Below, piece after piece: positions 39,574-64,000 of a stretch of 64,000 bases of DNA (positions are counted from its first letter, which is position 1; each line of letters starts with the position of its first letter). The stretch comes from Minisyncoccota bacterium. Its GTDB lineage: Bacteria > Patescibacteriota > Minisyncoccia > Phycocordibacterales > UBA9973. A program made the translations under genes and the position numbers. Below the pieces are notes generated by a model, which did no database searches, had not been told where the DNA came from, and saw nothing but the letters and a program-made list of their open reading frames with translations. Location: contig JBAZRK010000002.1 in assembly GCA_041663005.1 (NCBI GenBank), positions 64,740 through 128,739 on the forward strand, written 5' to 3'.

Positions 39574-39574
39574 C

Positions 39575-41254: not shown

Positions 41255-41367
41255 TTCGGACGTCCAACGTCCGAATAATATCGCATTGAAGTTAATGAAC
41301 ATTAACCTTATTTTCAGTTAATAATCGATAACTTTACATTAACCTCCTTTCTTGTTATAAATAAAGG

Positions 41368-42636
41368 GTGATATACAAAAGTAAATTATTCTATACCACT
41401 CGAGAAGTGGCCGAAATTCTAAAAGTTTCTTCCGTCACCATTTTCAAAAGAATTAAGGGTGGCAAAATTAATGCCGAAAAAATCGGCAAGAATTACCTCA
41501 TCCCCCGAAGTGAGCTCGCTCGTTTTGGAATAAAAACCGAAAATAGCTCAATGGAAATCTCAGAAGTACCTGAGGCAAAAACACTGGCTAAAGAAATATC
41601 TGATGATTTGAGAGGCACTACTTTTATACGTGATGGGAAAACAGTAGTCATCAAGCATGAAGATCTTTTCAAAACTCGATTTGACATAGAAGGCCGAGAT
41701 TTAATTGTGGGCTTCAACGAACCTGCTTTCAAAAAATCAAAAGATGATTTGACGCTCGGAGATCTCGATTCCCCTCTGAATGCCAGGCTTATCACGTATT
41801 TTTTGCCAGCAATACAAATCGCTCTTATGCAAAAGAAAAAACCTCGTCTGATTGTAGTAACTGGTATTAATGCTGCTCTAAAATATAATGCACAAAACGA
41901 AGAGCAAAGGAAAATAATGTACCGTAATAATATGCTGAAACTTAAGTTTATCGAAGAAACATTAAATAAATTCTTTCCTAATGCTTTTTCTATTATTGAA
42001 ACTCGTCTGGCATACGATTTTATGAAAATTTCTGAAGATAAACTGGATAAACTGTGGCAAGTTTTCATAAAGCGGTTCCCAGAAAGAATTGCGCCCCTGT
42101 CGGAAAGCCTGAAACTATTCAGCTCGAGCGGTAACACAAATTATTCTAATGAAAATAAACTTCGCGAGTCATTTCGTTACGCAGTACTTCACTTGTTTGC
42201 ATTGGGAGATGTTAATTTGGATTACGATTTCGTTCATAATGAAAAGGGTTATTGTTCCATTGGGGAGCACCAAGAGCTTATTTTCAATATAGTCCGCGAA
42301 GTTGGCTATGAGATTTTAAAGGATGTCGGTGAAGTAGTATTTGAGCGTGAAGTACACTGTTTTAAAAATCCAAAAATTGTAATTGAAGACAAGGGCCACG
42401 TACCGCCACCATATAACGGCTCTTTTAGAAGTAACGGGAACAGAACTTCTATTGATGAGGTAACTTACAAAAATAGCCGTGAATTGTCGTATTATGACAC
42501 CCGCCCCAGGCTCAAGCCACATATGGATTATCTATATAAAATCATTCCTAGGGAAACTTTTGAAAAATACTGGAAGGAATACAAACCTCGCTATTTAGAA
42601 TTAGAAAAAAGATACAACGAGGCTTATGGAATATAA
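41368..42636 (+). CDS. Hypothetical protein with an N-terminal excisionase/MerR-like HTH (HTH_17-type)
   Basis: TTREVAEILKVSSVTIFKRIKGGKINAEKIGKNYLIPRSEL resembles a DNA-binding excisionase-family HTH. The remaining roughly 370 aa are unrecognised. Confidence 0.55.
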   Translation: MIYKSKLFYTTREVAEILKVSSVTIFKRIKGGKINAEKIGKNYLIPRSELARFGIKTENSSMEISEVPEAKTLAKEISDDLRGTTFIRDGKTVVIKHEDLFKTRFDIEGRDLIVGFNEPAFKKSKDDLTLGDLDSPLNARLITYFLPAIQIALMQKKKPRLIVVTGINAALKYNAQNEEQRKIMYRNNMLKLKFIEETLNKFFPNAFSIIETRLAYDFMKISEDKLDKLWQVFIKRFPERIAPLSESLKLFSSSGNTNYSNENKLRESFRYAVLHLFALGDVNLDYDFVHNEKGYCSIGEHQELIFNIVREVGYEILKDVGEVVFEREVHCFKNPKIVIEDKGHVPPPYNGSFRSNGNRTSIDEVTYKNSRELSYYDTRPRLKPHMDYLYKIIPRETFEKYWKEYKPRYLELEKRYNEAYGI

Positions 42637-44799: not shown

Positions 44800-44808
44800 T
44801 TACCTTTG

Positions 44809-44880
44809 TGCACCCGGAGGGATTCGAACCCCCAACGACAGTTCCGAAGACTGTTGTGATATCCATTTCACTACGGGTGC
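44809..44880 (-). tRNA. tRNA-Arg (anticodon TCG)
   Basis: Cloverleaf with acceptor gcacccg/cgggtgc, anticodon loop cTTCGga and T-loop ttcgaat. CCA is not encoded. Confidence 0.7.
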
Positions 44881-45013
44881 AGGATTATTTAATAATACTT
44901 CATTATTTTACACTATTTAAAAAATATTGGCAAATCATGCTTATTTTACAAGGTGAATTGATAATTGCATTAACCCTATATTAATTATATAATACAACAG
45001 TATTTTTTTAACT

Positions 45014-45084
45014 GCGGTCATGGTTTAGTGGTAGAACACGTCCTTGCCAAGGATGAGACGGGAGTTCGATTCTCCCTGGCCGCA
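45014..45084 (+). tRNA. tRNA-Gly (anticodon GCC)
   Basis: Acceptor gcggtca/tggccgc, D-loop with GG, anticodon loop ttGCCaa, T-loop ttcgatt. No encoded CCA. Confidence 0.75.
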
Positions 45085-45322
45085 CTTCGACAGACTCAGC
45101 ACAAGCACCTCAGGTGTCCTTTACTTTCTTCCCATAATATAAGGATTTTGTGGAAAACTGGGGATAACTATGTGAGTAATGGGTATAAAGGACAGTGAAA
45201 AGTGCTGTCTTTGAAGAGGGATTTTAGAGAATTTAGCTTGTTAAATAAGGATATTATAGTAAAAGACATCGAAAATTGCTATTTTGTTTCACGTGAAACG
45301 TGTTTCTTATGAAACAACACTA

Positions 45323-45733
45323 ATGCCTAAGGTTTTTACCTCAAAAAGCCAAAAAACTGGAGAAATCGGTGAAAATATAGCCGTAAAGTTTCTCATGAAA
45401 CAAGGATTTTCCATAATTGAGCGTAATTACACTAAAAAGTGGGGTGAGATAGATATCATAGCAGAACGTACTGGTAAACTGCATTTTGTGGAAGTTAAGT
45501 CAGTGTCAAAGCCTAACCTCGAGGGTGTTACACGGGAAACACTTGATCAGTACCACCCTGAAGACAATATGCATCCGTGGAAACTTAAGCGGTTGTCTCG
45601 GACAATTCAGACATACCTAGTGTCGCAAAAAGTGCCAGACGATACAGAATGGCAGGTGGACTTACTAGTAGTATTTCTAAACCTTACGGACAAGAAAGCC
45701 CGCGTAAAAGTAGTCAGCGATATAATTTTATGA
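45323..45733 (+). CDS. YraN-family (UPF0102) predicted endonuclease
   Basis: GEIGENIAVKFLMKQGFSIIERNY...GEIDIIA pattern of UPF0102. The ATG at 45323 is preferred. Confidence 0.7.
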   Translation: MPKVFTSKSQKTGEIGENIAVKFLMKQGFSIIERNYTKKWGEIDIIAERTGKLHFVEVKSVSKPNLEGVTRETLDQYHPEDNMHPWKLKRLSRTIQTYLVSQKVPDDTEWQVDLLVVFLNLTDKKARVKVVSDIIL

Positions 45734-45789
45734 TATATTCAAATAGCTATAAGTGTAAACGGGCTTGCCCGACAAAGCTTTAGCATCGG

Positions 45790-45860
45790 CGGGCCGTAGT
45801 ATACCGGTAGTACAAGCGCTTTGGGAGCGTTTAGACTGGGTTCGATTCCCAGCGGCCCGA
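45790..45860 (+). tRNA. tRNA-Pro (anticodon TGG)
   Basis: Acceptor cgggccg/cggcccg, anticodon loop ttTGGga, T-arm ctgggttcgattcccag. Confidence 0.7.
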
Positions 45861-45905
45861 CAAGTTGAGGTTTTTGCGGGCTTGCCCGCCGAAGCCTTGG
45901 CGCAG

Positions 45906-45976
45906 GCGGGATTAGTTTAATGGTAAAATAACAGTTTTCCAAACTGTGGTTAGGAGTTCGATTCTCCTATCCCGCA
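45906..45976 (+). tRNA. tRNA-Gly (anticodon TCC)
   Basis: Acceptor gcgggat/atcccgc, anticodon stem acagt/actgt with loop ttTCCaa, T-loop ttcgatt. Confidence 0.65.
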
Positions 45977-46047
45977 CAAAAAATTTCTCTTTTAATTTTG
46001 CCACTTTTTGCAAATAATTTTATTTAATATACTATTAATCCATAATT

Positions 46048-46806: not shown

Positions 46807-47871
46807 TTAGAAAGGATTTTTCGCACCCTGAACTTCGAAGTGGAGGTGTGGTCCGGTAGAGCGTCCGGTAGAACCCACGGCGCCTATTTGTCCTCCTTGC
46901 TTCACGTGTGCGCCGGTCGTAGTGTCTATCCTCGACATATGTCCGTAGAGAGTTTTTGTGCCGTTGGGATGCTGGATGATAACCATATTTCCATAGCCTC
47001 CGTTATATCCAGTACGAGCAAGCAAAACTGTTCCTTCTGCCGCCGCAAGAATGCGAGTGCCTGTTGGTGCTGCCATATCCACACCACGATTGCCCGGGCC
47101 GTGTAGACCTTGACTGCGACGTTTCATTTCTGGAACTGGATGAATAAAGTAGCCGGTAGCATCCTTTAGCGGAGCATTGGTTAAGTAGCTACCACCGCCG
47201 GAAGATTTCTTTTTAGGGGCTGCGCTTGGCGAACTATCATTCGGCATTTCCGCGTCAGGGATAACAAGTTCATCGCCGATAGCTAGCACTGCACCCTTCT
47301 CTAGGCCGTTGAAGCTTGTGATAGTTTCCATATCAACCTTGTATTTCTTGGCAATATTGGCAAGTGTCTCACCTTTGGCAACGGTGTGCTGAACACCGGA
47401 AACAGGCAGAATAAAAAGGGTGTCGCCCTCTTTTAGCTTTTCACCCTTTTTTAAATCGTTGGCCCATAGAATTGTATTGGAAGAAACATCGAACATTTCG
47501 GCTATCTGGGCAATGGTGTCACCCTTGTGAACCACATACACACTTATGTCGTCTGGGTTCAGCCCTGAACTATCGACATCCACCCCACCGATTGAACTAA
47601 TAGACGATGGACTGACGGACGGAAGCAGGGCGCTGTCGGCAACAATACTGCCGCTTAGGCTACCGCTCACTTCTTGGACCGCCTTGTCTTTGGAATTGCG
47701 AGGGGAATTTGAAGACACCTCTGCTCCGAGGAGAGAGATGGTTTGAGAATTATCTACTGATTGGCCAGACCTAGTATTGGCGTAAGCATCGCTTCCTAAA
47801 AGGGAAGAGAGTAGGCTCGCTCCAGCGACAACGGGCATAAAAAGCGCCCCGGGTAGGAACGAAAAGGCCAA
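46807..47871 (-). CDS. LysM-domain M23 family metallopeptidase
   Basis: Two LysM repeats (YVVHKGDTIAQIA..., HTVAKGETLANIA...) and an M23 core (H.G.D...G, GYGNMVIIQH, TGRSTGPHLHFEV). Confidence 0.85.
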   Translation of the reverse strand: MAFSFLPGALFMPVVAGASLLSSLLGSDAYANTRSGQSVDNSQTISLLGAEVSSNSPRNSKDKAVQEVSGSLSGSIVADSALLPSVSPSSISSIGGVDVDSSGLNPDDISVYVVHKGDTIAQIAEMFDVSSNTILWANDLKKGEKLKEGDTLFILPVSGVQHTVAKGETLANIAKKYKVDMETITSFNGLEKGAVLAIGDELVIPDAEMPNDSSPSAAPKKKSSGGGSYLTNAPLKDATGYFIHPVPEMKRRSQGLHGPGNRGVDMAAPTGTRILAAAEGTVLLARTGYNGGYGNMVIIQHPNGTKTLYGHMSRIDTTTGAHVKQGGQIGAVGSTGRSTGPHLHFEVQGAKNPF

Positions 47872-48289: not shown

Positions 48290-50704
48290 ATGGACAACAG
48301 AGTTCCCAGAAATGTTGTGGATATGGTAGAAATCAACTGCAAAAACTGTGGTTATTCGGCCCATATCGTTGCAGCCCCTAAATGTCCGAATTGCGGCTGG
48401 CCGTTTAGTAAGCCTATCCCCAAAAAAACTCCGCCCGCAGAGAAAAAACCTAAGCCTCAAAAGCTGTTGGGTACTTCCTTGAAGGAAAAGCCTCAGGAAT
48501 CTCGCGCTTCCTTGGAAGAGCGATTAACATACCTAAAAAGACTGGGAAGAAAAAATAAAAGAAATAAGAAAAAAGAGGAAGACCCGAAGAAACAAGAGGA
48601 GATAAAAAGAATCGAAGCAGCCATTGCAAAACTGGATGTGGAAACAGGAGCAGGCGCTCGTGCTGAGGCTGTTGCTCCAACACAAGAAACACAAACCGAA
48701 AACCCGGAACTACCTTCGACACCTGCTCCCGAAACCGCCACGCAAATAGATGAAGCTAGAAAAGAAAGAGAAGAAGCTTTGGCACAACTTAGAAAAACTA
48801 TTGACGATGCGAATCAGATAATTATAGGAAATAAGAATAGGGAACAAGAAATATTGGCGCGCCTTAGAGAAATAGAAACGGGAAGGGCGAGAGCTCCATT
48901 AGTTACAGCAGAAACAGAAAATTTTTCCACTGATTTTATTCAAGATAGAATTCTAAAGTTATTCGCGTCTTTTGAGAAAGTTGAGAAAGTTAAAAAAGTT
49001 GAAGTGAGAGGTGAAGGGAATAGGGTCTCTTTGGATATAATTGTTACTGCGAAAGGAGAAGATATTGGAATAAAGGCAGATGTTGAAAATGCTCGTGGCA
49101 CACTCATAGCTGAAAATTTAAAAATTGAAGCAGGGATACTCACGAGAAATTATTTAAAACTAAAGATTAAACCGAAGCTTGAAAAAATAGAAAGTTTGCT
49201 TAGGGAAGAGGTAGAAAAGCAGACGGGTAAAAAGGTTGCGGGGATAAAGATAGAAAACGGTCAGCTCAACGTAAATTTTGAGGCGCAACCCTTGACGGTG
49301 GAAGGATTGGAAACAAAAGGTGAAAGTGGTGAAGAAAAACAATTGCGGGAAGAGTTAGCGGTAATCGAAAAAGATACGGCTCAGGCAAAAAAGGACTATC
49401 AACGAGCACTTGATGCCCTTGCTGCGACCACCGAGGCTGCGACCCCAGAGACACAACAAGATACAGAAAAGGAAGAAATCGAAAAACAAGAAGAGATTTT
49501 AGAAAAAGCTGTGGAGGAAGTGAAGGATTTGCAAGAACTTTTAAGTGCGCTAAGGTCTGTGGATTTTGTATACAACCGATCAGGCGAAAAATCCAGCACC
49601 GAAGATATGGCTCGCGGAATAGAAAAATGCTTGGAGGTTATAACTGACCCCTCTGCAAAATCCCCGCTTCCGGCAGAAGGAATAGATTATTATCTCTCTC
49701 ATTCAAATGTGACCCGAAGATTTGAGATACGCGATAAAGCAAAAACGTTTCTGCTAGAAATACAGGAGTCCGTATTCGCAGAAAAAGAGAATAAGGCAAA
49801 AGCTGAAGAGCGGGAAAAATCTCTGGCGCAACTCAATGAAACTATCGCTACAATAAATGAAAGGGTAATGCGGAGAAATGAAGACCGGCAGGCAGACGAT
49901 GAGCTGATTGTGCGACTAGAAAAAGAACTCGCAGAGCTCGAGGGTGGAAGTACGGGGCTCCTGCCTTCGGCGGAAGTTGAAAAAAGGGCAAATGAAATTG
50001 ATGGTGAAGTAGAAACCTTGTGGGAGACATTGAACAAAAAAATTGCAGAGTATAACGCTCTGGGAGCTTTTCAGATTTTTGCAAAATTAAGACTGCGTGA
50101 CGAAATAGATAGAATTCGGGAGCAGCAAAGAGAAAAAAGGTGGGCACAGCATCAAGCGTGGAATGAATTTCATGAACGGAGAGGGGTAGAACAAATGGAA
50201 CAGGAAGAAGCCGAAAAAGAAAGGCAAAAAAAAGAAGAGGAAAATGGGCAAGAACGTATACAGAAAATTGAGGAGGATAAAGAAATAAATCCGTTTAAAT
50301 ATTTCGCGCTAGACAAAATGTCCCCTGAGGTGTTCGATATAATTTTTGGAGAGCAAAAAGAAGCCGCAAGCCTAGAAATTTTGAATAAATTTGGTGAGAC
50401 GGGAAAAGAATTACAGTTTTGGCAGTTTAATTCTTTCTCTCCTATGCAGGGATATTTTGTAAAATTCAGCTCAAATGGTTTCTTGACCCAGTTGCAAAAC
50501 CCAAACGAAGTCACGGGAGAAGAAGAAGGAAAAAGTGTTTTATACACAGAAAGTCCAAAGGCAAAATATAAAGTCATCACCCCGGGGTGGAAATTTATAA
50601 AAGATAATCTTAGTTATAAAGAGGCACAAGAATTAATGATGCGATCTGCTCAAGAATACCAAGAAAAACTGCTCGCCGAATTTGAGGCTGAAAACAAACA
50701 ATAA
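48290..50704 (+). CDS. Hypothetical large coiled-coil protein with an N-terminal zinc ribbon
   Basis: CKNCGYS...CPNCGW ribbon followed by a K-rich basic segment and a long E/K-rich coiled-coil. 804 aa. A TGgTATAAT promoter lies upstream. Confidence 0.6.
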   Translation: MDNRVPRNVVDMVEINCKNCGYSAHIVAAPKCPNCGWPFSKPIPKKTPPAEKKPKPQKLLGTSLKEKPQESRASLEERLTYLKRLGRKNKRNKKKEEDPKKQEEIKRIEAAIAKLDVETGAGARAEAVAPTQETQTENPELPSTPAPETATQIDEARKEREEALAQLRKTIDDANQIIIGNKNREQEILARLREIETGRARAPLVTAETENFSTDFIQDRILKLFASFEKVEKVKKVEVRGEGNRVSLDIIVTAKGEDIGIKADVENARGTLIAENLKIEAGILTRNYLKLKIKPKLEKIESLLREEVEKQTGKKVAGIKIENGQLNVNFEAQPLTVEGLETKGESGEEKQLREELAVIEKDTAQAKKDYQRALDALAATTEAATPETQQDTEKEEIEKQEEILEKAVEEVKDLQELLSALRSVDFVYNRSGEKSSTEDMARGIEKCLEVITDPSAKSPLPAEGIDYYLSHSNVTRRFEIRDKAKTFLLEIQESVFAEKENKAKAEEREKSLAQLNETIATINERVMRRNEDRQADDELIVRLEKELAELEGGSTGLLPSAEVEKRANEIDGEVETLWETLNKKIAEYNALGAFQIFAKLRLRDEIDRIREQQREKRWAQHQAWNEFHERRGVEQMEQEEAEKERQKKEEENGQERIQKIEEDKEINPFKYFALDKMSPEVFDIIFGEQKEAASLEILNKFGETGKELQFWQFNSFSPMQGYFVKFSSNGFLTQLQNPNEVTGEEEGKSVLYTESPKAKYKVITPGWKFIKDNLSYKEAQELMMRSAQEYQEKLLAEFEAENKQ

Positions 50705-50708
50705 ATTT

Positions 50709-53030
50709 ATGGATCAAGAACCACCTAAAGATATAAACAAGGAGGAGCGAAAAAGAGAGCTGCAAAAACAACTTGCGGAAGCCAGAGACCGGCAGAGACA
50801 ACGCGATGACGCAGATCGAGATGACAGCAGAGAGCTTCATAAAGCTGAGCAAGAGCGAGCTGCGTTAATGGGTACCGGGAACCCTTCAGGATATCCTGTG
50901 GATAATAATTTTAGCCCCCGAGAAGAAAATGAGTGGTACAAAGATACGCCTACGCGTCAGGGTATGGACTTAGAGGCCCTAGCCCAGAGAATACAAAGTG
51001 AAATCACTGGCCTGCCAGAAGAAGAAAGGCAGCAACGCGCTATTGAGTTGTTGCTGGCTGAAAAGGAAGCCTGGAACGAGGAACAGGGAGGCGCAAAAGA
51101 AGGTCTGCGCAAATTTGATAAATGGTGGGATGGATTAGAAAAAACAAAAGGCGGCGTGGCTCTAAAAGCGCTAATAGGCGGAGCGCTAATAACCGCAACG
51201 ACCGTGGGGCTCGGCGTAGCGCCTGTATCCCTTTTGGGTGTGGGTTTTAGGCTCACGAGTCGTGTAGCTGCTGCAACGGGGTTAAACATGGCCCTCACTT
51301 CCGAGCGTGTGCGCAAATGGCTCACTCCCAAAGAGGACACTGGCAGTCCCAAAACTCTTAAGGAAAAAGTGTTGACTGTGCAAAATTTAAAATACGCGGC
51401 AATGATCGGCGGTGCTGGTCTTATATTTATGATGGGCGGTGCCCAAGTAGCTGTAGTAGGTGCAACCGGTATGGCCCTTCGATTCGGAGTCAACCAGATA
51501 ATCGAAAAGCGAACTAAAGCACTGGAAGAAAAGAGGAAAAATCTTTCTATTCGTGCGGAAAGTTTGCAAGACAATTTCGACATCAATGCTCTAGCAGCAC
51601 ACCTAGAAGTTTTTGAGGAAGAATATGGAAAATTATCGGCCTCTCTCACTCGCAATAAGTGGGCTAAAAATTTAGTAAATGGAGCAATAACCGTCGGGGT
51701 CGGCCTGGGCACTATGGCCGTAGCACATCATGGCGCAGATACTACACATGCACCTAAAGAGGTTCCGGATAAGCCGGCGGCAACTGTCACGCACCCACAC
51801 CAGCCGGAAGTCACCACCAGGCCTACGGCCGAACCCGTAGTGCAACCAAAGGAAGAGGTAGATACGTCCAAAGTCACGGATTGGAAAAAAGTTTATCCTC
51901 CAGGGCAACCAACCCATCCGATTACACCAGAAGTTACATTAAACCCGGATGCGATTATCAAGCCAGGTGATGGCATAGAAAGCGCATTTATAAGACAAAT
52001 TGAACACAATGACGCTCTGGCCACGAAACTCGGCTGGGACGGTGAAAGTGATTTGCATAAATTCGCGCAAGGCGAGGCACATCGCATGGCACGCGACTAC
52101 GGATACATAGACAAAACTACGGGAGAAGAAGTCCGGGTTGAGTCTGCGGGAAAGATAGCATATGAAATAAGAACGGAGGGGGATAAAATTGAAGTGATAG
52201 AGAAAAGTATCAAAGGAGATATTCTAGATACCCACGAGAAAGGCAACGCGTTTGAAAAAGAAACTGATAAATATGAAAAGTTGTGGACTAAACCAGAAGA
52301 AACCGCTAATAACATCCTCAAACCTACAAACACCTACGGAGACATGGCGAAGGATGCTCCTGGAGCCTTGCCAGAATCCGCTGACACCACCCCAGCAGAA
52401 GAAGTAACGTATCAAAAGAGCGAAATTTATAAGGATGACGCGTGGCGAAATAGACAAGCAAGCGAAGAAGAGCTTGAACGCACGCGAAGAGAACTCCTTG
52501 AAAAAATGGGAACGAAAACAGAACAGCCGCACACAGAAACATCTATGAATGGACACACGGAACCATCCCCTGGACCTGAAGCACAAGTGGGCGGGCATCT
52601 ACAACCTAAGGGAGATTATTCTGGAGACCTTGCTCCACGCCAGGTGGAAGCGTTACGTCTTCATTCCGAATTCATACAGAACAATAACACTTATCTTTTA
52701 TCTGATTCCGAATTGTGGGAAACCTATGAAGCTAGTAGGTCAGATTTACGTTTTCTGTTCAGTAGTGAAAATTCCATTGCTTGGCACGAACTCGATGACA
52801 TGAATGCAAGTGCATTATTAACCCAGGTAGACTCTGGCACGGATTCAGCGCAGGATCACTTAGTGAGATATTTACATGTACTCCAGAATTTCACTGAGCC
52901 TAAGCTTGAACCAAGGCGCGGAATCTTAGGCATCGGGGCTGAACACGTTAAAGATTTCATGGCCCGGGCAATGATCCAACTAAAACATAATGGAAACCTG
53001 GAAGTTTTCCAAGAATCCATTAGGAAATAA
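50709..53030 (+). CDS. Hypothetical large charged protein with two central TM segments
   Basis: Charged coiled-coil N-terminus and hydrophobic stretches (ALIGGALITATTVGLGVAPVSLLGVGF, AAMIGGAGLIFMMGGAQVAVVGATGMAL). The ATG at 50709 is preferred. Confidence 0.55.
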   Translation: MDQEPPKDINKEERKRELQKQLAEARDRQRQRDDADRDDSRELHKAEQERAALMGTGNPSGYPVDNNFSPREENEWYKDTPTRQGMDLEALAQRIQSEITGLPEEERQQRAIELLLAEKEAWNEEQGGAKEGLRKFDKWWDGLEKTKGGVALKALIGGALITATTVGLGVAPVSLLGVGFRLTSRVAAATGLNMALTSERVRKWLTPKEDTGSPKTLKEKVLTVQNLKYAAMIGGAGLIFMMGGAQVAVVGATGMALRFGVNQIIEKRTKALEEKRKNLSIRAESLQDNFDINALAAHLEVFEEEYGKLSASLTRNKWAKNLVNGAITVGVGLGTMAVAHHGADTTHAPKEVPDKPAATVTHPHQPEVTTRPTAEPVVQPKEEVDTSKVTDWKKVYPPGQPTHPITPEVTLNPDAIIKPGDGIESAFIRQIEHNDALATKLGWDGESDLHKFAQGEAHRMARDYGYIDKTTGEEVRVESAGKIAYEIRTEGDKIEVIEKSIKGDILDTHEKGNAFEKETDKYEKLWTKPEETANNILKPTNTYGDMAKDAPGALPESADTTPAEEVTYQKSEIYKDDAWRNRQASEEELERTRRELLEKMGTKTEQPHTETSMNGHTEPSPGPEAQVGGHLQPKGDYSGDLAPRQVEALRLHSEFIQNNNTYLLSDSELWETYEASRSDLRFLFSSENSIAWHELDDMNASALLTQVDSGTDSAQDHLVRYLHVLQNFTEPKLEPRRGILGIGAEHVKDFMARAMIQLKHNGNLEVFQESIRK

Positions 53031-56242: not shown

Positions 56243-57154
56243 TTGGCAAAATACAAAAGAGTGCTTCTGATTCTAGTCGCAGTAATTTTTCTGATGGCGC
56301 TTTTCTGGATGAAAACCGGAATGCCGTGGAACAATAAAGCAATCTACCAGGGCTCAGATGGCCTTTCGTACGAGAACGCACTTGTGGAAGATTTAATCAA
56401 GCGAGATGGAGATGGAGACGGAGTCTTGGATTGGGAAGAAAGTCTGCTCGGGCTTGATCCGACAAAAAGTGAAACGACTCCCGGCACCCCTGACTTGACC
56501 ACTGCCAACAAACTGCGCGCCGAAAGTTATGCTGGTGCGTCCACGGAAGGGGGTGAACTCGGCGCAGAAGAGAATTTAACCGAAACTGACAAGTTCGCTC
56601 GAGAACTTTTCGCCACAGCCACTGCCCTCGAACAGAGCGGCTCCCTCGACCAGGCCACAGCAGATAAAATGGCAGCCTCCTTGGCAGAACATATCACAAA
56701 TTCTCCACAAGGGAAAGTTTACACACTCACAGATTTAAGGATAACGAATGACAACAGTCTGGTCGCGATAAAAAAATACAATGATTCGCTTAACCTAGCT
56801 TTCAAAGATTACACTGTGGGGTATTCCGCCGCTGAAGTTTTCGAAAAATTTCTAGGAGACGGCACTGATATGGATGTAAGTGTGCTAAACGAACTTGATC
56901 CCATCATAAAGGAATTTAACAGTAAAATAAGTAGTATGGTAAAAATGGAAGTACCTAAATTCATTTCTGTGTATCACCTTAATATGATAAATGAACTCTC
57001 TGGGGTGGCTGGAAACTTGGAAAACATAAAGATGTATGAGAAGGATAGTATCGTGGCGCTAAGCGGTATCACTCAGTATGCCGAGAACACGACGAAACTT
57101 GAAACAGCAGTCACAGAGTTAATGACGGTTTTGCTACAGAAATTGAACAATTAA
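56243..57154 (+). CDS. Hypothetical bitopic membrane protein (N-terminal TM, DGDGDG motif), possibly the first gene of the T4SS-like cluster
   Basis: TM RVLLILVAVIFLMALFWM followed by about 280 aa extracytoplasmic. VirB8-like topology but no sequence evidence. Confidence 0.45.
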   Translation: MAKYKRVLLILVAVIFLMALFWMKTGMPWNNKAIYQGSDGLSYENALVEDLIKRDGDGDGVLDWEESLLGLDPTKSETTPGTPDLTTANKLRAESYAGASTEGGELGAEENLTETDKFARELFATATALEQSGSLDQATADKMAASLAEHITNSPQGKVYTLTDLRITNDNSLVAIKKYNDSLNLAFKDYTVGYSAAEVFEKFLGDGTDMDVSVLNELDPIIKEFNSKISSMVKMEVPKFISVYHLNMINELSGVAGNLENIKMYEKDSIVALSGITQYAENTTKLETAVTELMTVLLQKLNN

Positions 57155-57185
57155 AGCGCGAGAGGTATAATATAAAGAAATTACA

Positions 57186-59381
57186 ATGGCTGGAAATAAA
57201 AAATTCATTAAACTTATCTCCGTTATTTTAATCATCGCGGTTTTTATGCCTTCGGTGGCAATACTTTCGACACCAAAGAGGGCAGAGGCGCAAGCGGCCG
57301 TTGCAGAAGTGGGCCCCTGGGCGTGGATAAGTAAAGCTTTGATGAGTATGGGAATTTCCCAAGAAACAATTACAGCGCTCATTAAAGGAAAGGAGTGGGC
57401 CTGGAAAATCACCGAGGAACTAGCAAAGGCTGCGGCAATGAAAGCCCTGCAGGAAATGACTAAAAGCACCATAACTTGGATTAACCAGGGTTACCACGGA
57501 ACTCCGCTTTTCTTAGAAAATCCACAGTCGTTCTTTCAAGATATTGTTAAATATGAGGTGAAAACAGCAGTAGATGCGTACGGATATAATGAACTTATGT
57601 ATCCTTTCGGTCGTGACTTCGCTTTAAATACCATCAACGCCTACAAAAGCCAAATTGCCGAGAACAATGCTTACACTTTAAGTTCGGTAATAAATGACCC
57701 TATCCTCTTAAAAAACTACCAAACCGACTTCAATGTTGGTGGCTGGACAGGATTCTTAATTAATACTCAATATCCACAAAATAACTATATCGGTTTCCAA
57801 ATGACGGCAACTGAAGACCTCGCCAGAAAGATACAAACTCCGGTTAATAATAAATTGGCCGAAGTGCAAAACACAGTAAGCCAGGGAATGGGCTTTCTGT
57901 CTCCACAGATGTGTCAAACAAATCCTAGCTATAATAATGATTTTTATAATCAGTTTAACGCGCCAAAGTACAACGAATCAAAATTTGATAAGACATACCT
58001 AGAAACTCACCCTTACCCTGAAACAGGAGGAGTTCCAACTCCCGAAGACGAAAATGCTGTGAAAACTTGGGAGCTAAATAGAGATCTGGCTATGGCAGAA
58101 GATAGGGGGGAGTGGGGAAAAACCAATGAATGTCCTCCGAACGGAGACGGCTCAAGTGGCCTGGTCAATACCACCCCGGGCGCAGTTGTGGCCAACCAAA
58201 TTTTCCAGTCTGTGCAAACCCCTACTACACTGAAACAAATGGCAGTTAATTCTGGTACTCAAATTTTGTCTGCTGTTTTCGATCAGTTAATAGGAAAGTT
58301 AGTTGATGCGGGTTTGAATGCTTTGGCAAGTAAGACAAACCCTCCTCCACCCCAAGGAGAGGAGTGGAGTTATAACGGCATAAAATTGGGAGGTTCAGCA
58401 ACCGTAAGTGGCTATAATAATGGGGATGATATTTGGTCTACCCCGGACGAAATTGTTACTGTCGCTGACTTTAAAACAAAAGTAGAGGCGGAAATAAAAA
58501 AGACTGAAACAGAGATAAAATATATGTCGAATAATGTGCCGGACAGCTTCGGCCCTGGAACAATGCAAGTCCTAGCACAACTCTGGCCGAAGGCTCAAAC
58601 CCTCGACATCTGCCAGCCTGGCCCGGACATTAATTGGGGAAATAGATTTGATTCGGAAATGACTATCAACCAAACAAAATTTTCTGGTGACAGCCCTGAA
58701 GCGGCTTCAAATTCAAAGGAGCTTGAATATGCCGCCAGCATATTCAAGGATTGGGTAAGCACACAGACTAAGTATGCCCTACCCTCTTCAGCTAGTTACT
58801 TAGGAGCAATCGATGATTTGCCTGACTTGGACCAACAAGCAACTCAAGTCCAGAACAAATTAGACGAGAAATCAGATGTACTGACTCAATTAAAACTGAT
58901 GAAGACAAAACTCGAAACTATGACCGGTGAACCCGCAGCTGGCTCTGAAGAAGAGCGCACACTTTTGTCTCTCTGGTCCCAACGTAAGGCAATCTTAGGA
59001 CAGATAAGTAACGACATAAGTCTGGGTGAAACTAGTAGCGAGCGAGACATTGTTTTATCTAAGAGCCAAAACCTTGACCAGCTCTTGATACGATGCAAGG
59101 AGGAGCGTGTAGCTAAAGGTTGGGACGCACAAGGGGGCCCAGGAAGCAAGCAGTCGGCGGGTGCTGTAACTGAGCAAGTTTACTTCTGCGAGGCGCCCAT
59201 TGTCGGAGGGTTCTCCCACAAGACATTTATAAATACTGGGACCATTGCTTATCCGCAAATTCCGTTAGTTAATGCCTCAAATGTAGCAAATGGTGGGTCT
59301 TCGGTTGACGTAACTATGAATTGTGGAAATATTTTCAGCGCTAGTATTTTGGATTATAAAGGAAATTTGCCAAGTTTCTAG
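57186..59381 (+). CDS. Large secreted hypothetical protein of 731 aa in the T4SS-like cluster
   Basis: Signal peptide MAGNKKFIKLISVILIIAVFMPSVAILSTPKRAEA, with no further TM segments. Confidence 0.55.
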   Translation: MAGNKKFIKLISVILIIAVFMPSVAILSTPKRAEAQAAVAEVGPWAWISKALMSMGISQETITALIKGKEWAWKITEELAKAAAMKALQEMTKSTITWINQGYHGTPLFLENPQSFFQDIVKYEVKTAVDAYGYNELMYPFGRDFALNTINAYKSQIAENNAYTLSSVINDPILLKNYQTDFNVGGWTGFLINTQYPQNNYIGFQMTATEDLARKIQTPVNNKLAEVQNTVSQGMGFLSPQMCQTNPSYNNDFYNQFNAPKYNESKFDKTYLETHPYPETGGVPTPEDENAVKTWELNRDLAMAEDRGEWGKTNECPPNGDGSSGLVNTTPGAVVANQIFQSVQTPTTLKQMAVNSGTQILSAVFDQLIGKLVDAGLNALASKTNPPPPQGEEWSYNGIKLGGSATVSGYNNGDDIWSTPDEIVTVADFKTKVEAEIKKTETEIKYMSNNVPDSFGPGTMQVLAQLWPKAQTLDICQPGPDINWGNRFDSEMTINQTKFSGDSPEAASNSKELEYAASIFKDWVSTQTKYALPSSASYLGAIDDLPDLDQQATQVQNKLDEKSDVLTQLKLMKTKLETMTGEPAAGSEEERTLLSLWSQRKAILGQISNDISLGETSSERDIVLSKSQNLDQLLIRCKEERVAKGWDAQGGPGSKQSAGAVTEQVYFCEAPIVGGFSHKTFINTGTIAYPQIPLVNASNVANGGSSVDVTMNCGNIFSASILDYKGNLPSF

Positions 59382-59390
59382 AGACCGAGA

Positions 59391-61817
59391 ATGAATATGC
59401 TAGTTAAAAAAATAATTCCGTATTTTCTGATAACTATCATTATCTCTGGGATAGGATTTTTCAGTGGTGCAGAAAAGGCAAGTGCGGCTGATGGGCTGTG
59501 TAGTGTTGACATAACGACGATCAGAGTAAGAATGGTCGGGGGGACAGAAGAGGTAACTGAGACAACCTCACAAATACAAAGAACACTTGCCGATACTGTA
59601 TGTAAGCTAGCAAATCCTGATTTAAGAAAAGTATTAGGCTTAGACGGCGATCAGAGCATCACCAATGTAGAGTGGCAGCCACTCTCAGTTGCCGACAAAA
59701 AAATGTGGTGCATTGTACGCGATACCACGAGAAGTGTCCAAGACGGACAGGTTGTAAAACAACTAAAAGACGTAGAAGAAAGAAACTGTAATTATGAACG
59801 CCTGAAAGGCTTATATCCTGATCTTAAGCCGGAGCCAACTTTCAGGTATACGCCTGCCTCCACTCTATCTCCAGATTTAATAAAGACGGGAGGCGGAGTA
59901 GCCGTAGCGGAAGATATATTTGAGAACATAGTTAAGGGAAAGGCATGTATAGATTTATCTGAAGGCTTTGATATGATGGGGTGTGCTCTGAAATTCACCT
60001 ACTTCGTACTTTATATGCCCATGGCCGGCGTTCTCTGGCTATCGGCAAAATTCTTCGACTATTTAATATTTGTTACGTTGTCAAGCACATTGTTTAGGGA
60101 AGGGTTTGTTAGGGAAGCATGGGCAATTGTTAGAGACCTTTCCAACCTTTTCTTTATCTTGATTCTCTTATATGTGGCTATTGAGATAATTTTAGGTCTG
60201 GCTCACGACGCAAAAAAGGCAATTGTCAGAGTTATCGTTGCGGCGTTGCTTATTAATTTCTCTATGTTTTTCACTGGCATTGCCATAGATTCTTCAAATA
60301 TTTTAGCCTTAGTTTTTTATAATAAACTGCAAACAACATACAAAGATAAGAACGGGGAGCCAGTGGAACGCTCCGGCGACACTCCTGTGGGTGCAGCTAG
60401 AGATGTTTCCGGGAGTCTTGCAGACTCATTTAATCTAACGAAAATGGTTACCCCCAAGATTATCAAGGCAACTTCTGTTCCTCTCCCTGGGGGACTCAAA
60501 TCGTCTGATCCTTCTAGCAGTTTGATGTTGGTAATTCTTCTGGTCGCCATCGCAGTAATGGGGCTTGCGTCGTACGCTTTCCTTGTTGCTGGCTTTTCTT
60601 TCGTGGGTCGTTTGGTAGAACTTTGGGTTCTGATTATTGCCTCTCCGTTCGCTTTTATGTCTTCAACCATACACGAGCTAGAGGGGATTAAGGATTGGGG
60701 ATGGCATAGCTGGCTACATCGCCTGCTCACAGCCTCATTTATGGCCCCGGCATTTATGTTTTTCTTGTATTTTATTTTCAAGTTGAGTGAAGCTGGGGTA
60801 AAAGATATGTTACAACCAACAAAAGATAGCGGCGAGTCGCTGATTTTACTTTTGCTGAGTTTCGTCTTGCCCGCACTTTTAATTATGATTCTTCTCTTGA
60901 AATCTGTGAGTCTTGCGAAGGCTAGTGCCGGTCAAATGGGTGAAACGGTTGCTAAGTGGGGAGAAAAATTAGGAGGGATGGCTGGCGGACTAGCGCTCGG
61001 AGCAGCGACAGGTGGCGCCGGGTTAGCATTAGGAGGTGCAGCAGCGCTGGGAAGAAACACTGCTGGAAGAACGGCAGCTGCCTTGGCAGAAAGTAATAAA
61101 TTTAAAACTTGGGCCGCAGACAGCAAGTTGGGTAAGCGCGCCATGAATCTCACGAGTGGTTTAGCCTCTAGCAGTTTTGATCTCCGGGGGGTTAAACTAG
61201 GAGGTAAGGGTTTATCATCGGTTTCGGGACTTAAGGGCATAGGCAAAGGGCAAGAAGGTGGGTTTGTAAAAGCTAGAGCGGAGGCGGTTAAGAAAGAGGA
61301 AGAATTCGCAAATAAAGTATTAGACACTGGAGATTATGCAAAAGCAGAAATGTCGCGAGGGGGTATGTCGCAAGCTAAGGCAGATAAATTAATTAAAACA
61401 ATGATTGATGGAGGGATGACTGACCTAGGAGATGTAAATAAATATCGAACCGCTCTTATGGGCAACGGTGTACGAAAGGAGAACCTAGGGGAGGTTTCTA
61501 GATACTTGAACACTTCTCGCCGAAACACCTACGCAGACAGACTCGAAAAACGTGCAAAAAATTGGCAGAGCAAAGCCGGCACATGGTTTGCTTCTAAAAA
61601 TATTGCTGCAAACAAAATACGCAAGGACTCACATCAGCAAAAAGAAGAAGAGGAGTTGGCTCATGTAATACATAAAGTGGTGGAAGAAGCGGAAAAAGGC
61701 CACGGCAAGGGACATGGAAAAAAGCATGATGCGGAGGAAGAGACTACGGAACCAGCACATCCAACACCACCTCAAGATGGAGGTGGCTCTGCGCCAACGC
61801 CTCATCCTCATGCATAA
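59391..61817 (+). CDS. TrbL/VirB6-like polytopic membrane protein with a Gly/Ala-rich C-terminal extension
   Basis: Signal/TM at N-terminus, at least 5 central TM helices, a Gly-Ala-rich tract (GGMAGGLALGAATGGAGLALGGAAALG) and a charged tail. The topology resembles type IV secretion VirB6/TrbL proteins. Confidence 0.5.
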   Translation: MNMLVKKIIPYFLITIIISGIGFFSGAEKASAADGLCSVDITTIRVRMVGGTEEVTETTSQIQRTLADTVCKLANPDLRKVLGLDGDQSITNVEWQPLSVADKKMWCIVRDTTRSVQDGQVVKQLKDVEERNCNYERLKGLYPDLKPEPTFRYTPASTLSPDLIKTGGGVAVAEDIFENIVKGKACIDLSEGFDMMGCALKFTYFVLYMPMAGVLWLSAKFFDYLIFVTLSSTLFREGFVREAWAIVRDLSNLFFILILLYVAIEIILGLAHDAKKAIVRVIVAALLINFSMFFTGIAIDSSNILALVFYNKLQTTYKDKNGEPVERSGDTPVGAARDVSGSLADSFNLTKMVTPKIIKATSVPLPGGLKSSDPSSSLMLVILLVAIAVMGLASYAFLVAGFSFVGRLVELWVLIIASPFAFMSSTIHELEGIKDWGWHSWLHRLLTASFMAPAFMFFLYFIFKLSEAGVKDMLQPTKDSGESLILLLLSFVLPALLIMILLLKSVSLAKASAGQMGETVAKWGEKLGGMAGGLALGAATGGAGLALGGAAALGRNTAGRTAAALAESNKFKTWAADSKLGKRAMNLTSGLASSSFDLRGVKLGGKGLSSVSGLKGIGKGQEGGFVKARAEAVKKEEEFANKVLDTGDYAKAEMSRGGMSQAKADKLIKTMIDGGMTDLGDVNKYRTALMGNGVRKENLGEVSRYLNTSRRNTYADRLEKRAKNWQSKAGTWFASKNIAANKIRKDSHQQKEEEELAHVIHKVVEEAEKGHGKGHGKKHDAEEETTEPAHPTPPQDGGGSAPTPHPHA

Positions 61818-61821
61818 AAAT

Positions 61822-62271
61822 ATGACTTCCGAAATAGAACAAATAATTAAAAATCAGTGGAATCAATTACCGGAAGGGGTAAGGTCTATTCTAGCAAACC
61901 CTGAGCTTAGCCTTAAAATTAGAACTCTTGGAAAAAATATCGGGCTGACAGACGAACAATTACCAACACTAGAAACTGAAACTTTTTTGGTTTTGTTGGG
62001 ACTATCTAATCCTAGAAATTTTAAACAGGAACTGCAGCGTCGCTTGGGTTTACCGGGAGAATCCGCTAATGTTGTGTCGGCAGAAATAGTAAGAAATATA
62101 TTAAGTGGATTGGAAATCGAGCTCGAACACATTTTCCGCAGCGTTAATGTAAGCGGGGAAAACGAAAATTCTATGATTGTTTCTGATCAACTACCTGAGA
62201 ATTCTTCTTGGTATGAAAATATTGTTTTTATTTTATCAGGTGGGGATTTTAATGCTTTTGATGAGGTATAA
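61822..62271 (+). CDS. Small hypothetical protein (paralogous domain shared with the next gene)
   Basis: ATG at 61822 immediately after the upstream stop. Shares an L..E....LGL....F...L...LG......A..V motif with the 62289 gene. Confidence 0.45.
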   Translation: MTSEIEQIIKNQWNQLPEGVRSILANPELSLKIRTLGKNIGLTDEQLPTLETETFLVLLGLSNPRNFKQELQRRLGLPGESANVVSAEIVRNILSGLEIELEHIFRSVNVSGENENSMIVSDQLPENSSWYENIVFILSGGDFNAFDEV

Positions 62272-62288
62272 AATGATATAATTAAAAT

Positions 62289-62981
62289 ATGCAAGAAGAA
62301 CGAGATCGGTTACAAGTTAAAATAGATGAAGCTAGAAAGAAATTGCCAGAAATTACTCGGCAGGCTATAGACGCAGTAGACGTTAAAGAAGTAATTTGGG
62401 AAATTCATAAGGAAAATAAGTACGACCTTACACAACTCGGGGACCTGGAACTAGAAACAACACTACTTCTATGTGGTCTTATTGAGCCTGATGATTATCC
62501 TAAGGACATACAAGAAAGGCTTGGAATAAGCGAAAACGAAGCAGGCGACTTAGTAAAATTAATGAATGAAAAAGTTTTCAAAAAAATTCGTAACAAACTC
62601 ATTGAAAACACCAAACAGAAACCCGATTCCCGAGAAAAAGCCCCTGCAGTACCCGCCTCAGAAATAAGCAATCAGGAGCTTAAGAAGGCGGGAATAGAGG
62701 TTATGCCAAGCGCTTCACCTGTGCCAAGCAATGAAGTAAAGCCAGAAACCCGCGAAGAAATTTTAAAAAGGTTGGAACAACCTGAAATTGCAGCCCCTGC
62801 TGGCGGGTCCCATCCAATTCTAGCTGAAAAGCTTTCCGGTCCTATGCAAATTCCATCTTCTGCGACAGTACACTCACTGGACAACCTTACTAAACCAGCG
62901 GCAACACCCGCCGCCACTTCGACGAAAGCTCCCGCTCCTCAAAAATACGACGTGGACCCTTATCGGGAACTCCCAGAATAG
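62289..62981 (+). CDS. Small hypothetical protein with a Pro/Ala-rich C-terminus
   Basis: N-terminal domain paralogous to the preceding ORF. Confidence 0.45.
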   Translation: MQEERDRLQVKIDEARKKLPEITRQAIDAVDVKEVIWEIHKENKYDLTQLGDLELETTLLLCGLIEPDDYPKDIQERLGISENEAGDLVKLMNEKVFKKIRNKLIENTKQKPDSREKAPAVPASEISNQELKKAGIEVMPSASPVPSNEVKPETREEILKRLEQPEIAAPAGGSHPILAEKLSGPMQIPSSATVHSLDNLTKPAATPAATSTKAPAPQKYDVDPYRELPE

Positions 62982-63038
62982 GTTCTGTTTGTTACTAAAA
63001 ATAAAATTTTCAGGTATAATTGAATTAGCTCGCTAGCT

Positions 63039-63488
63039 TTGAGCTACCCAATGCAATTCAAGGTCCCTCAATTTTTAGACATAGAAGATAAAATTTTCGG
63101 CCCTTTCACTTTTCGGCAGTTCGTTTATCTTGCCGGAGGGGCGGGGTTGTGCTTTGTGTTATACAGACTCCTGGGATTACTCTGGAGCTCGCTGCCAATA
63201 TTGTTCGTCGGCGGGTTTGCTGGAGCTCTAACTTTCTACCGTCCGAACAATAAACCGTTTATCAATATGCTTGAAGCGGGAATAAAATATTTATTTCAAA
63301 GCAAGCTGTATATTTGGGAAAGACGGATGGGGCAAGCCGGCCAGGCCCGAGATTCAAAACAAGAAGCACTCACTGCGGCTCAGACATCTAGCGCCACTCA
63401 GGTTGGAGCTCGCCTAACAGGGGAAAAGCTTCGAGACCTTGCTTGGAGCTTGGATGTATTGGATTTAAGTAGGGAAAAGAAAAACTAA
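63039..63488 (+). CDS. PrgI/VirB3-like small membrane protein
   Basis: Short N-terminus then FGPFTFRQFVYLAGGAGLCFVLYRLLG and a second TM segment. Size, topology and position immediately upstream of a VirB4-like gene match PrgI/TcpE/VirB3-type proteins. Confidence 0.5.
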   Translation: MSYPMQFKVPQFLDIEDKIFGPFTFRQFVYLAGGAGLCFVLYRLLGLLWSSLPILFVGGFAGALTFYRPNNKPFINMLEAGIKYLFQSKLYIWERRMGQAGQARDSKQEALTAAQTSSATQVGARLTGEKLRDLAWSLDVLDLSREKKN

Positions 63489-63489
63489 T

Positions 63490-64000
63490 ATGGCACTTAG
63501 CGCAAAAGCAACCCAAGATTTCGTTCCGATAAGAGAAATACGCGATGGCGTTATCATTTTGAAGGACGGCGGGCTACGAGCGATAGTTCTTGCCAATTCC
63601 GTTAACCTGTCTCTCAAATCAGAGGATGAACAAAAGGCAACTATCGCGCAATTTCAAAACTTTCTGAATACCTTAGACTTCTCGGTACAGATATCCGTTC
63701 AATCTCGCCGACTCGACATCCGCCCATATCTGCTGCTTTTAGAAAACAGGATGAAAGTACAAAATGAACCTTTGCTTAAATTGCAGACTAAAGAATACAT
63801 AGAGTTCATTCGCAATTTCACCGAGTCGGTAAGTATAATGACGAAAAGCTTCTTCGTAGTCGTGCCATACACCCCCACAACCCTACAGTCAGATGCGAGC
63901 TTTTTAGATAAATTACTTTCCAGGAAGAACGCTGCTCAGCAACAAGCTGCCCAACAGATAGCGTTTGAGGAAAAGAAGTCCCAGCTTGAAGAAAGGGTGG
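63490..64000 (+). CDS. VirB4/TrbE/CagE-like type IV secretion ATPase, N-terminal fragment (continues past window)
   Basis: ORF open from ATG 63490 to window end: MALSAKATQDFVPIREIRDGVIILKDGGLRAIVLANSVNLSLKSEDEQKATIAQFQNFLNTLDFSVQISVQSRRLDIRPYL. This is the pattern of VirB4 N-terminal domains in Gram-positive-type conjugation systems. Not in the ORF track because no stop lies in the window. Confidence 0.55.
   Translation, partial: MALSAKATQDFVPIREIRDGVIILKDGGLRAIVLANSVNLSLKSEDEQKATIAQFQNFLNTLDFSVQISVQSRRLDIRPYLLLLENRMKVQNEPLLKLQTKEYIEFIRNFTESVSIMTKSFFVVVPYTPTTLQSDASFLDKLLSRKNAAQQQAAQQIAFEEKKSQLEERV

Follow-up and report, generated by a model that had tools for sequence, protein, structure and literature searches.

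The 64,000-nucleotide stretch of Minisyncoccota bacterium DNA analysed here (contig JBAZRK010000002.1; the window) ends, on its plus strand from position 56243 onwards, in a gene cluster for a type IV secretion system (T4SS). We read this locus, with a probability of about 0.85, as a chromosomal T4SS of the Patescibacteria clade that derives from the MPF-FATA systems of monoderm bacteria and is no longer linked to DNA-processing genes. That it is a T4SS of the type already described in Patescibacteria is nearly certain, and by analogy a non-conjugative role in host interaction, through export or exchange of macromolecules, is fairly probable. The core of the original prediction, a T4SS-like apparatus proposed from the sequence without database searches, is supported by profile matches, extension of the contig and synteny.

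A survey of open reading frames (ORFs) found every ORF listed in that prediction on the plus strand between 56243 and 64000. The last of these, which the window edge truncates, matches with 100% identity a protein of 212 aa from a metagenome-assembled genome (MAG) of Candidatus Paceibacterota; this protein is encoded on a 226-kb ENA contig (L001) of which all 10,511 overlapping bases are identical to the window end (window position = L001 position + 53489). As had been predicted, co-directional genes follow ksgA and run past the edge. L001, which provides the extension that had been asked for, supplied the end of g7, genes g8 to g11 and the origin block, and the complete cluster consists of 11 co-directional, tightly spaced genes (g1 to g11). 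It is flanked by ksgA/uvrD on one side and on the other by jag (R3H), yidC, yidD and rnpA, which lie on the minus strand 3' of g11 and are followed by dnaA and dnaN. The part in the window is the upstream two-thirds of this chromosomal, origin-proximal T4SS unit. A scan for promoters and terminators gave a signal no better than that of shuffled sequence. For comparison with related loci, one genome per species was scanned and the best 80 of at least 590 relatives of g8 were taken, the loci being picked by VirB4 similarity.

Motor, membrane and pilin components

The strongest matches to known T4SS proteins come from g6 to g8. Gene g6 (63051–63488, +) encodes a PrgI/VirB3-family protein with two hydrophobic segments at residues 29–62 (transmembrane [TM] scan) and lies directly upstream of the VirB4 genes. 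It scores 38.2 bits against Pfam PrgI (gathering score 27; E = 2.2e-9), with a further match to TcpE (E = 0.007), which bears out its earlier classification as a PrgI/TcpE/VirB3-type protein. The ORF had been described as a 149-aa protein with two TM segments; both segments were confirmed, but the 149-aa version begins at TTG 63039, and the likely start is ATG 63051 (MQFKVPQF), as in 73 of 77 orthologues, giving a protein of 145 aa. The N-terminus MQFKVPQFLDIEDKIFGPFTFRQF and the ATG start are conserved among orthologues. The g6 stop codon (TAA, 63486–63488) and the g7 start codon (ATG, 63490) are one base apart and do not overlap, contrary to what had been predicted. The automated calls on the public contigs give the PrgI/VirB3 gene only 53–73 aa, against about 145 aa for the conserved protein, and since such calls shorten this gene, annotation-based VirB3 counts for such genomes may be underestimates.

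The motor is encoded by two genes. The product of g7 (212 aa; 63490–64000 in the window, +, ending at the equivalent of window position 64128) is a TrsD-like homologue of the VirB4 N-terminal domain: it carries the precomputed Pfam label PF26593 (TraC-like) and matches positions 102–280 of VirB4_plasma, the NCBIfam model of Mycoplasma VirB4 (E = 1e-11), NCBIfam TrsD (TrsD/TraD family, E = 4e-6) and positions 2–166 of conju_CD1110 (NF045971). Walker motifs are absent from g7. They are found in the product of the next gene, g8 (614 aa; 64133–65977, beyond the window on L001), which begins after a gap of 4 nt, with Walker A (AKSGSGKS) at residues 266–273 and Walker B (VVDE) at 474–477; the key residues of the two motifs (AxxGxGKS and hhDE) are invariant in 79 g8 orthologues. 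This protein matches the VirB4-like conju_CD1110 model with 365.4 bits (cut-off 325; positions 183–733), VirB4_plasma at positions 292–893, Pfam P-loop_TraG (E = 4e-25) and the AAA_10 domain. It is 28–35% identical, over 87–96% of its length, to plasmid VirB4 proteins of Bacillota and Actinomycetota, and was aligned by hhalign with residues 225–773 of pCF10 PrgJ (99.7%). Judged from these alignments, g7 and g8 together are equivalent to one full-length VirB4 profile in which the N-domain is separate from the remainder, the TrsD arrangement of pGO1 and Patescibacteria, rather than part of the same polypeptide. Since all 79 related loci have g7 and g8 as two ORFs, the split is ancestral and not the result of a frameshift. 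The original prediction was therefore right in recognizing VirB4 N-domain homology in the last ORF and in placing a prgI-like gene before a virB4-like one (g6 directly precedes g7 and g8), but the ORF ends after 212 aa as a TrsD-like protein of its own. The lack of Walker A/B motifs further downstream, which had been named as grounds for rejecting the prediction, applies literally to g7 but not in spirit, as the next gene encodes the ATPase.

Gene g3 (59391–61817, +; 808 aa), three genes upstream of PrgI, encodes a polytopic membrane protein of the 'extended' type with an N-terminal signal or TM segment and six TM segments at residues 253–502 (TM scan). Its additional parts are a Cys-containing extracellular N-domain of about 200 aa, a segment rich in Gly and Ala and, at the C-terminus, a charged tail that is about 250 aa long. 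Two NCBIfam families were matched below their curated cut-offs: the Mbov_0396 transmembrane protein of integrative and conjugative elements (ICEs; E = 8e-8) and the conjugal transfer protein MMCAP2_0566 (E = 4e-7). Among 40 g3 orthologues, MMCAP2_0566 was matched by 10, Mbov_0396 by 5 and the mobilome membrane protein family CD3337/EF1877 by 2, the matches of g3 and its orthologues to the three families (E = 1e-4 to 6e-9) all being sub-threshold. A weak hhalign match was also obtained with a 779-aa membrane protein of a Pontibacillus cluster (E = 2e-4; see below). Pfam TrbL was not matched by any of the 40 orthologues, the hhalign comparison with pCF10 PrgH was not significant, and a search of the g3 profile against PDB sequences returned only noise. 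In a library of 1.84 billion proteins, the family has 11,412 cluster representatives (E <= 1e-3), a search that gave family size only and no distant annotated relatives. On the basis of the sub-threshold NCBIfam matches, topology and gene position, g3 is best read as a VirB6 equivalent with large hydrophilic domains. The predicted VirB6/TrbL-like topology was accordingly upheld as to the six TM segments and the position, with sub-threshold matches to conjugation families and none to Pfam TrbL.

Gene g10 (67000–68001; L001 13511–14512) encodes a 333-aa protein in which a VirB2-like pilin is joined to a lysozyme-like domain. The pilin part matches Pfam T4SS_pilin (PF18895) with 40.6 bits (gathering score 26.6), a family present in all 40 g10 orthologues scanned, as well as the Mycoplasma ICE pilin-like family of the Mbov_0395 type (E = 2e-7, under the curated cut-off) and TrbC (E = 0.016), the last of these also being matched by 11 of 40 orthologues. 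Hydrophobic segments at residues 4–22, 96–114 and 132–150 correspond to a signal peptide and two pilin helices. The Cys-rich C-terminal domain of about 175 aa contains an ES...GLFQVN motif and resembles SLT_3 weakly (E = 0.003; 18.4 bits, cut-off 27). Across the 40 positional orthologues, at least 11 sequence clusters, unrelated to one another, can be told apart at the C-terminus: NlpC/P60 (12 loci), VanY (8), YkuD (5), SLT_3-like (4, this locus included), Peptidase_M15_4 (3) and SLT_2 (2), together with at least 4 clusters that have no Pfam match. The cell-wall enzyme domain has thus been swapped among g10 orthologues that are otherwise colinear. Fusions of pilin and enzyme are mentioned neither in the text of the 2025 survey of Patescibacteria T4SSs (PMC12102498) nor in the papers found in a literature search, and the swapping of the enzyme domain among orthologues is possibly a new observation. 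As the T4SS_pilin (PF18895) and SLT_3 (PF18896) families have adjacent accessions, our guess is that the Pfam curators perhaps saw the lysozyme version.

Lineage-specific proteins

The remaining six proteins (g1, g2, g4, g5, g9 and g11) gave no significant match in Pfam, NCBIfam or PDB sequences, and hhalign revealed no counterpart in the clusters of pCF10, Clostridium perfringens or Pontibacillus. Related proteins do exist: g1 has 112 and g2 374 database homologues, and each accessory protein has 35–74 positional orthologues among the related loci. The statement that the accessory proteins lack recognizable homologues is therefore correct for Pfam and PDB but not for the Paceibacteria, in which relatives number from dozens to hundreds.

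The first gene, g1 (56243–57154, +), encodes a 303-aa bitopic protein with one N-terminal TM segment (residues 7–25) and the motif RDGDGDGVLDWEE at residues 54–66, a thrombospondin-type-3-like DxDxDG sequence predicted to be extracellular; the bitopic protein with a DGDGDG-type motif of the original prediction was thereby confirmed. In a structure model the C-terminal part forms a four-helix bundle, and g1 was on this ground rejected as VirB8 or VirB5. Comparisons of g1, g9 and g11 with PrgL and PrgD by hhalign were not significant. The predicted 731-aa secreted protein was likewise recovered as g2 (57186–59381, +), a secreted or surface protein with an N-terminal hydrophobic, signal-like segment. 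The model of its C-terminal half shows an elongated helical bundle and a small beta domain, and a Foldseek search with the g2 model gave no matches in PDB; a VirB5-like role at a pilus tip is a weak lead. Beyond the window, g9 (66032/66077–66997; 306–321 aa) encodes a secreted, beta-rich protein resembling, by weak matches only, a secreted beta-sandwich protein, and g11 (68009–69343; 444 aa) encodes a bitopic protein for which 3 of 40 orthologues show weak matches to PD40 beta-propeller repeats.

Genes g4 (149 aa; 61822–62271, +) and g5 (230 aa; 62289–62981, +) encode small soluble paralogues. Paralogy, which is invisible to BLASTP (nothing was found with g4 or g5), was established by hhalign (probability 99.3%, E = 2e-20, 105 columns) over a common N-terminal domain of about 105 aa. 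The predicted pair of small paralogues is therefore real, but the first most probably has its start at 61822, where the gene call of the public contig puts it, and not at 61714, the latter version (185 aa) overlapping g3. The C-terminal extension of g5 is rich in Pro and Ala and closes in a conserved DPYRE motif; g5 was located in 60 related loci, with about 31% identity. In 21 related loci g4 and g5 both match one ORF, so these loci appear to be single-copy for the pair. The family has no Pfam or PDB match, and both proteins, which possess neither signal peptide nor TM segment, are presumably cytoplasmic.

Conservation and role of the cluster

The best 80 relatives all come from MAGs of the Paceibacteria/Nomurabacteria type, some of them labelled as Saccharibacteria by their depositors. 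Identity of g8 to these homologues is 75–95%, against at most 35% to plasmid VirB4, and g8 very likely falls within the monophyletic Patescibacteria VirB4 clade. From ksgA to dnaN, 17 genes keep the L001 order in 80 of 81 loci, which is the synteny that the original prediction had proposed to look for; with an identical gene order in so many loci, the arrangement is far beyond chance. Median identities to this locus are 85% for the VirB4 ATPase g8, 71% for TrsD (g7), 58% for PrgI (g6, 80 loci), 46% for g11, 44% for the pilin g10, 36% for g9 and about 30% for g1 to g5, with 79% for DnaA, 69% for DnaN and 64% for YidC. The VirB4 ATPase (L001 10644–12488) thus stands above DnaA (17929–19272; 85% versus 79%), partly through selection bias. 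The motor is at least as constrained as DnaA in these loci, chosen by VirB4 similarity, and the exposed components evolve fast; as far as sequence comparison goes, strong purifying selection on the motor (g7 and g8) is evident.

In the cultivated saccharibacterium Southlakia epibionticum, transposon sequencing found the T4SS genes to be essential for epibiotic growth (Wang et al. 2023, Cell, PMC10633639). The essential genes include those for TrsD, PrgI, VirB6 and pilins (PMC10633639, PMC12857230), and the system has odd pilins and lacks coupling and relaxase proteins (PMC10633639). A 2025 review speculates that a pilus-like conduit may serve for signals or for uptake, and describes the essentiality as independent of ComEC (PMC12857230). 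Tubular structures seen at a parasite-host interface may be T4SS pili (preprint, bioRxiv 10.64898/2026.06.21.733656). Patescibacteria account for a considerable part of bacterial diversity and lead a life attached to other microbes; before their T4SS, none had been shown to be essential to its own carrier bacterium.

By analogy with T4SSs that have been studied, the hairpin of g6 would anchor the VirB4 assembly of g7 and g8 to the membrane beside g3, and ATP hydrolysis by g8 would drive the extraction and polymerization of the g10 pilin, the opening of a channel with passage of a substrate, or both. Passage would cross a single membrane and the wall, the peptidoglycan being opened by the hydrolase domain linked to g10, and the fast-evolving proteins g1, g2, g9 and g11, all of them anchored or secreted, would build the extracellular part and contact the host. 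The apparatus would in this way most probably provide an episymbiont with a conduit essential for its interaction with the host, serving effector export or macromolecule exchange and not conjugation. A rather unlikely elaboration is a VirB2-type pilus in which each subunit bears a fused, exchangeable wall enzyme and a VirB5-like g2 forms the tip, i.e. a wall-breaching filament directed towards the host. It is conjecture within this idea that the g10 fusion polymerizes, that its enzymes act on the host wall, that g2 is the tip, and that the chemistry of the enzyme would match the peptidoglycan of the host or of the bacterium itself.

Several points weigh against our reading of the locus as a non-conjugative Patescibacteria-clade T4SS. 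i) No VirB8-like protein (NTF2 fold, as in PrgL/TcpC/TraM) was identified, the fold having been checked for g1. ii) The VirB6 assignment lies below curated thresholds, with TrbL and PrgH unmatched. iii) The conservation comparison is biased by the choice of loci through VirB4. iv) VirD4 and relaxase were searched for in 74 kb, the contig measuring at least 226 kb, and copies may exist elsewhere in the genome; VirD4 homologues lie far from virB4 in many Patescibacteria, according to the 2025 survey. v) The function is taken from Saccharibacteria, another class.

Among the alternatives, an inward-working T4SS that imports nucleic acid, like ComB of Helicobacter pylori or the archaeal Ced system, and so feeds a nucleotide-deficient bacterium is unlikely, although several observations agree with it. 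No relaxase or coupling protein is encoded nearby; g8 has a weak local match to CedB of archaeal DNA import (E = 1.8e-8), which is, however, restricted to the P-loop region, i.e. the common ATPase core; T4SS genes of the ABY1 class sit with comF/recG/radA (PMC12102498); and a 2026 preprint ties parasitism of Minisyncoccota to uptake of host RNA, and VirB4 to macromolecule transfer. On the other hand, profile scans recognized no DNA-binding or nuclease component among the cluster proteins. Transformation of S. epibionticum needs ComEC and type IV pili; comEC, unlike the essential T4SS, can be deleted (PMC12857230), and the essential role of the T4SS in that bacterium is therefore not DNA uptake for transformation. 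Nor is nucleotide auxotrophy established here, because the window encodes a carbamoyl-phosphate synthase and a dihydroorotase-like enzyme.

It is very improbable that the cluster serves an ICE or integrated plasmid as its transfer module, moving DNA from cell to cell. All its recognizable parts are homologous to conjugation proteins of monoderms (CD1110-family VirB4, PrgI, TrsD and Mbov_0395/0396/0397). However, when two VirD4 and two relaxase sequences were used as tblastn queries, the check that had been suggested, neither protein was found in the 74 kb of the window and L001 combined or at distances of up to 10 kb from virB4 in any of the 80 related loci, and Pfam scans of the larger ORFs of the window found no coupling protein, relaxase or integrase. 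Relaxases occur in only 103 of 3,035 genomes of the 2025 survey and rarely near virB4 (PMC12102498). The position between ksgA and rnpA-dnaA is fixed in 80 of 81 loci of different species, identity tracks that of DnaA/DnaN as fits vertical inheritance, and the GC content of the cluster (0.42–0.45) is uniform with the remaining window. Fixed origin-side position, vertical divergence and ordinary base composition together argue against a mobile element. With no relaxase or VirD4 nearby, the non-conjugative use suggested in the original prediction is supported as probable. That an ancient conjugative element left the cluster behind as an inactive relic, retained by chance, has a negligible probability: the distribution of VirB4 over two genes could be read as disruption if this genome were taken alone, but the split is identical in all 79 loci, both halves are highly conserved (medians of 71% and 85%) with invariant catalytic motifs, all 11 ORFs are intact despite strong reduction of the genome, and in S. 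epibionticum TrsD is among the components listed as essential.

The rest of the window is occupied by housekeeping genes, including nusA, carB, uvrD/pcrA, ksgA and those for an H+-pyrophosphatase, RNase Y, PNPase and a CCA-adding enzyme. The H+-pyrophosphatase gene lies at 5198–7210, a full-length gene for the large subunit of carbamoyl-phosphate synthase at 11248–14526 and that of the dihydroorotase-like amidohydrolase at 15572–16825; the latter two could be pyrimidine-pathway genes, and such genes would come as a surprise in a lineage that is usually said to lack nucleotide synthesis. Three consecutive ORFs at 37834–42636 (+) encode proteins of 579 and 570 aa without Pfam match and one of 422 aa with an N-terminal HTH_17 domain (excisionase type). 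The sole RNA genes detected in the window are four tRNA genes at 44808–45977 (Arg-TCG, Gly-GCC, Pro-TGG and Gly-TCC). A protein with LysM and Peptidase_M23 domains is encoded at 46807–47871 (-), 8 kb upstream of the cluster; these domains have been noted in VirB1 candidates of Patescibacteria (PMC12102498), and nothing ties the protein to the T4SS. Directly upstream of uvrD/pcrA, two ORFs of 804 and 782 aa (48290–50704 and 50682–53030, +) encode charged, coiled-coil-like proteins with no Pfam match, the second with a central hydrophobic Gly/Ala-rich stretch.

Comparison with known systems

The apparatus is not poorly described, as had been supposed, since systems of this kind are treated in a 2023 study (PMC10633639), a 2025 survey (PMC12102498) and a review (PMC12857230). 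In the survey, VirB4 was found in 2,417 of 3,035 Patescibacteria genomes and nearly all of these proteins fall in one clade nested within MPF-FATA (Quinonero-Coronel et al. 2025, Microb Genom, PMC12102498). TrsD is the commonest associated component; PrgI/VirB3, VirB6 and VirB2-like pilins occur near virB4, VirB8 and VirB1 are seldom recognizable, relaxases are almost absent and VirD4 is mostly distant from virB4 (PMC12102498). The neighbours of the T4SS in Paceibacteria are dnaA, dnaN, rnpA and ksgA (PMC12102498). The locus analysed here agrees with this description: 1) a TrsD homologue beside virB4, PrgI/VirB3, a VirB6-like protein and a PF18895 pilin are encoded, with g6, g7 and g10 all within 3 genes of g8; 2) the cluster contains no relaxase or coupling protein, and VirB8 is unrecognizable; and 3) its place is on the chromosome, with dnaA, dnaN, rnpA and ksgA as neighbours. 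No essential difference was noted; from the S. epibionticum system (SEML1_0006–0019) it departs in having one pilin gene with a lysozyme-like domain in place of a 6-gene pilin array. Proteins g1, g2, g4, g5, g9 and g11 are not named in the text of PMC12102498 or PMC10633639. The locus adds nothing categorically new, and is rather a clean and complete Paceibacteria example offering testable details, namely the obligatory split of VirB4, the cytoplasmic paralogue pair, the pilin with interchangeable peptidoglycan enzymes and the related Firmicutes cluster described below.

With the MPF-FATA systems (Prg/Pcf of pCF10, Trs/Tra of pGO1/pSK41, and those of C. perfringens and of the C. difficile CD1110 type) the locus shares a homologous VirB4 (28–35% identity), a PrgI/VirB3 gene immediately preceding VirB4, a TrsD-like protein (pGO1 has one as well), a putative peptidoglycan hydrolase from within the cluster and the absence of outer-membrane core components. 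In contrast to them, it has no relaxase, VirD4 or PrgB-type adhesin, possesses a VirB2-like pilin, and is chromosomal and vertically inherited. When the proteins were compared by hhalign with those of the C. perfringens, Pontibacillus and pCF10 clusters, only VirB4, TrsD and the pilin were matched, with VirB3 and the membrane protein matched weakly; nothing here corresponded to PrgH, PrgL, PrgD, PrgK, PrgE, PrgF, PrgG or PrgM of pCF10. Mycoplasma ICEs encode a comparable set, with the pilin-like Mbov_0395 corresponding to g10, Mbov_0396 to g3 and the VirB4 protein Mbov_0397 to g7 and g8 together, but these models were matched below curated cut-offs, and Mycoplasma VirB4 is one protein of 894 residues.

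Outside Patescibacteria, the closest relatives occur in haloarchaea and on Bacillota and Actinomycetota megaplasmids, and these too have a separate TrsD-like gene beside VirB4. In the cluster of a Pontibacillus megaplasmid (NZ_CP062975, 350336–361354), two pilin-like genes of the Mbov_0395 type, genes for a 779-aa membrane protein and a VirB3-like protein, a separate TrsD-like gene and genes for a 621-aa VirB4 ATPase and a 1,050-aa peptidoglycan endopeptidase are found, with flagellar genes adjacent and no relaxase nearby; its pilins, unlike g10, are not fused to hydrolases. Counterparts of g1, g2, g4, g5, g9 and g11 are lacking from the Mycoplasma and Pontibacillus clusters. Since Pontibacillus has both a split VirB4 and a VirB2-like pilin, this combination is not unique to Patescibacteria among monoderms, which bears on the question, left open in PMC12102498, of a possible co-option of the pilin from diderm systems.

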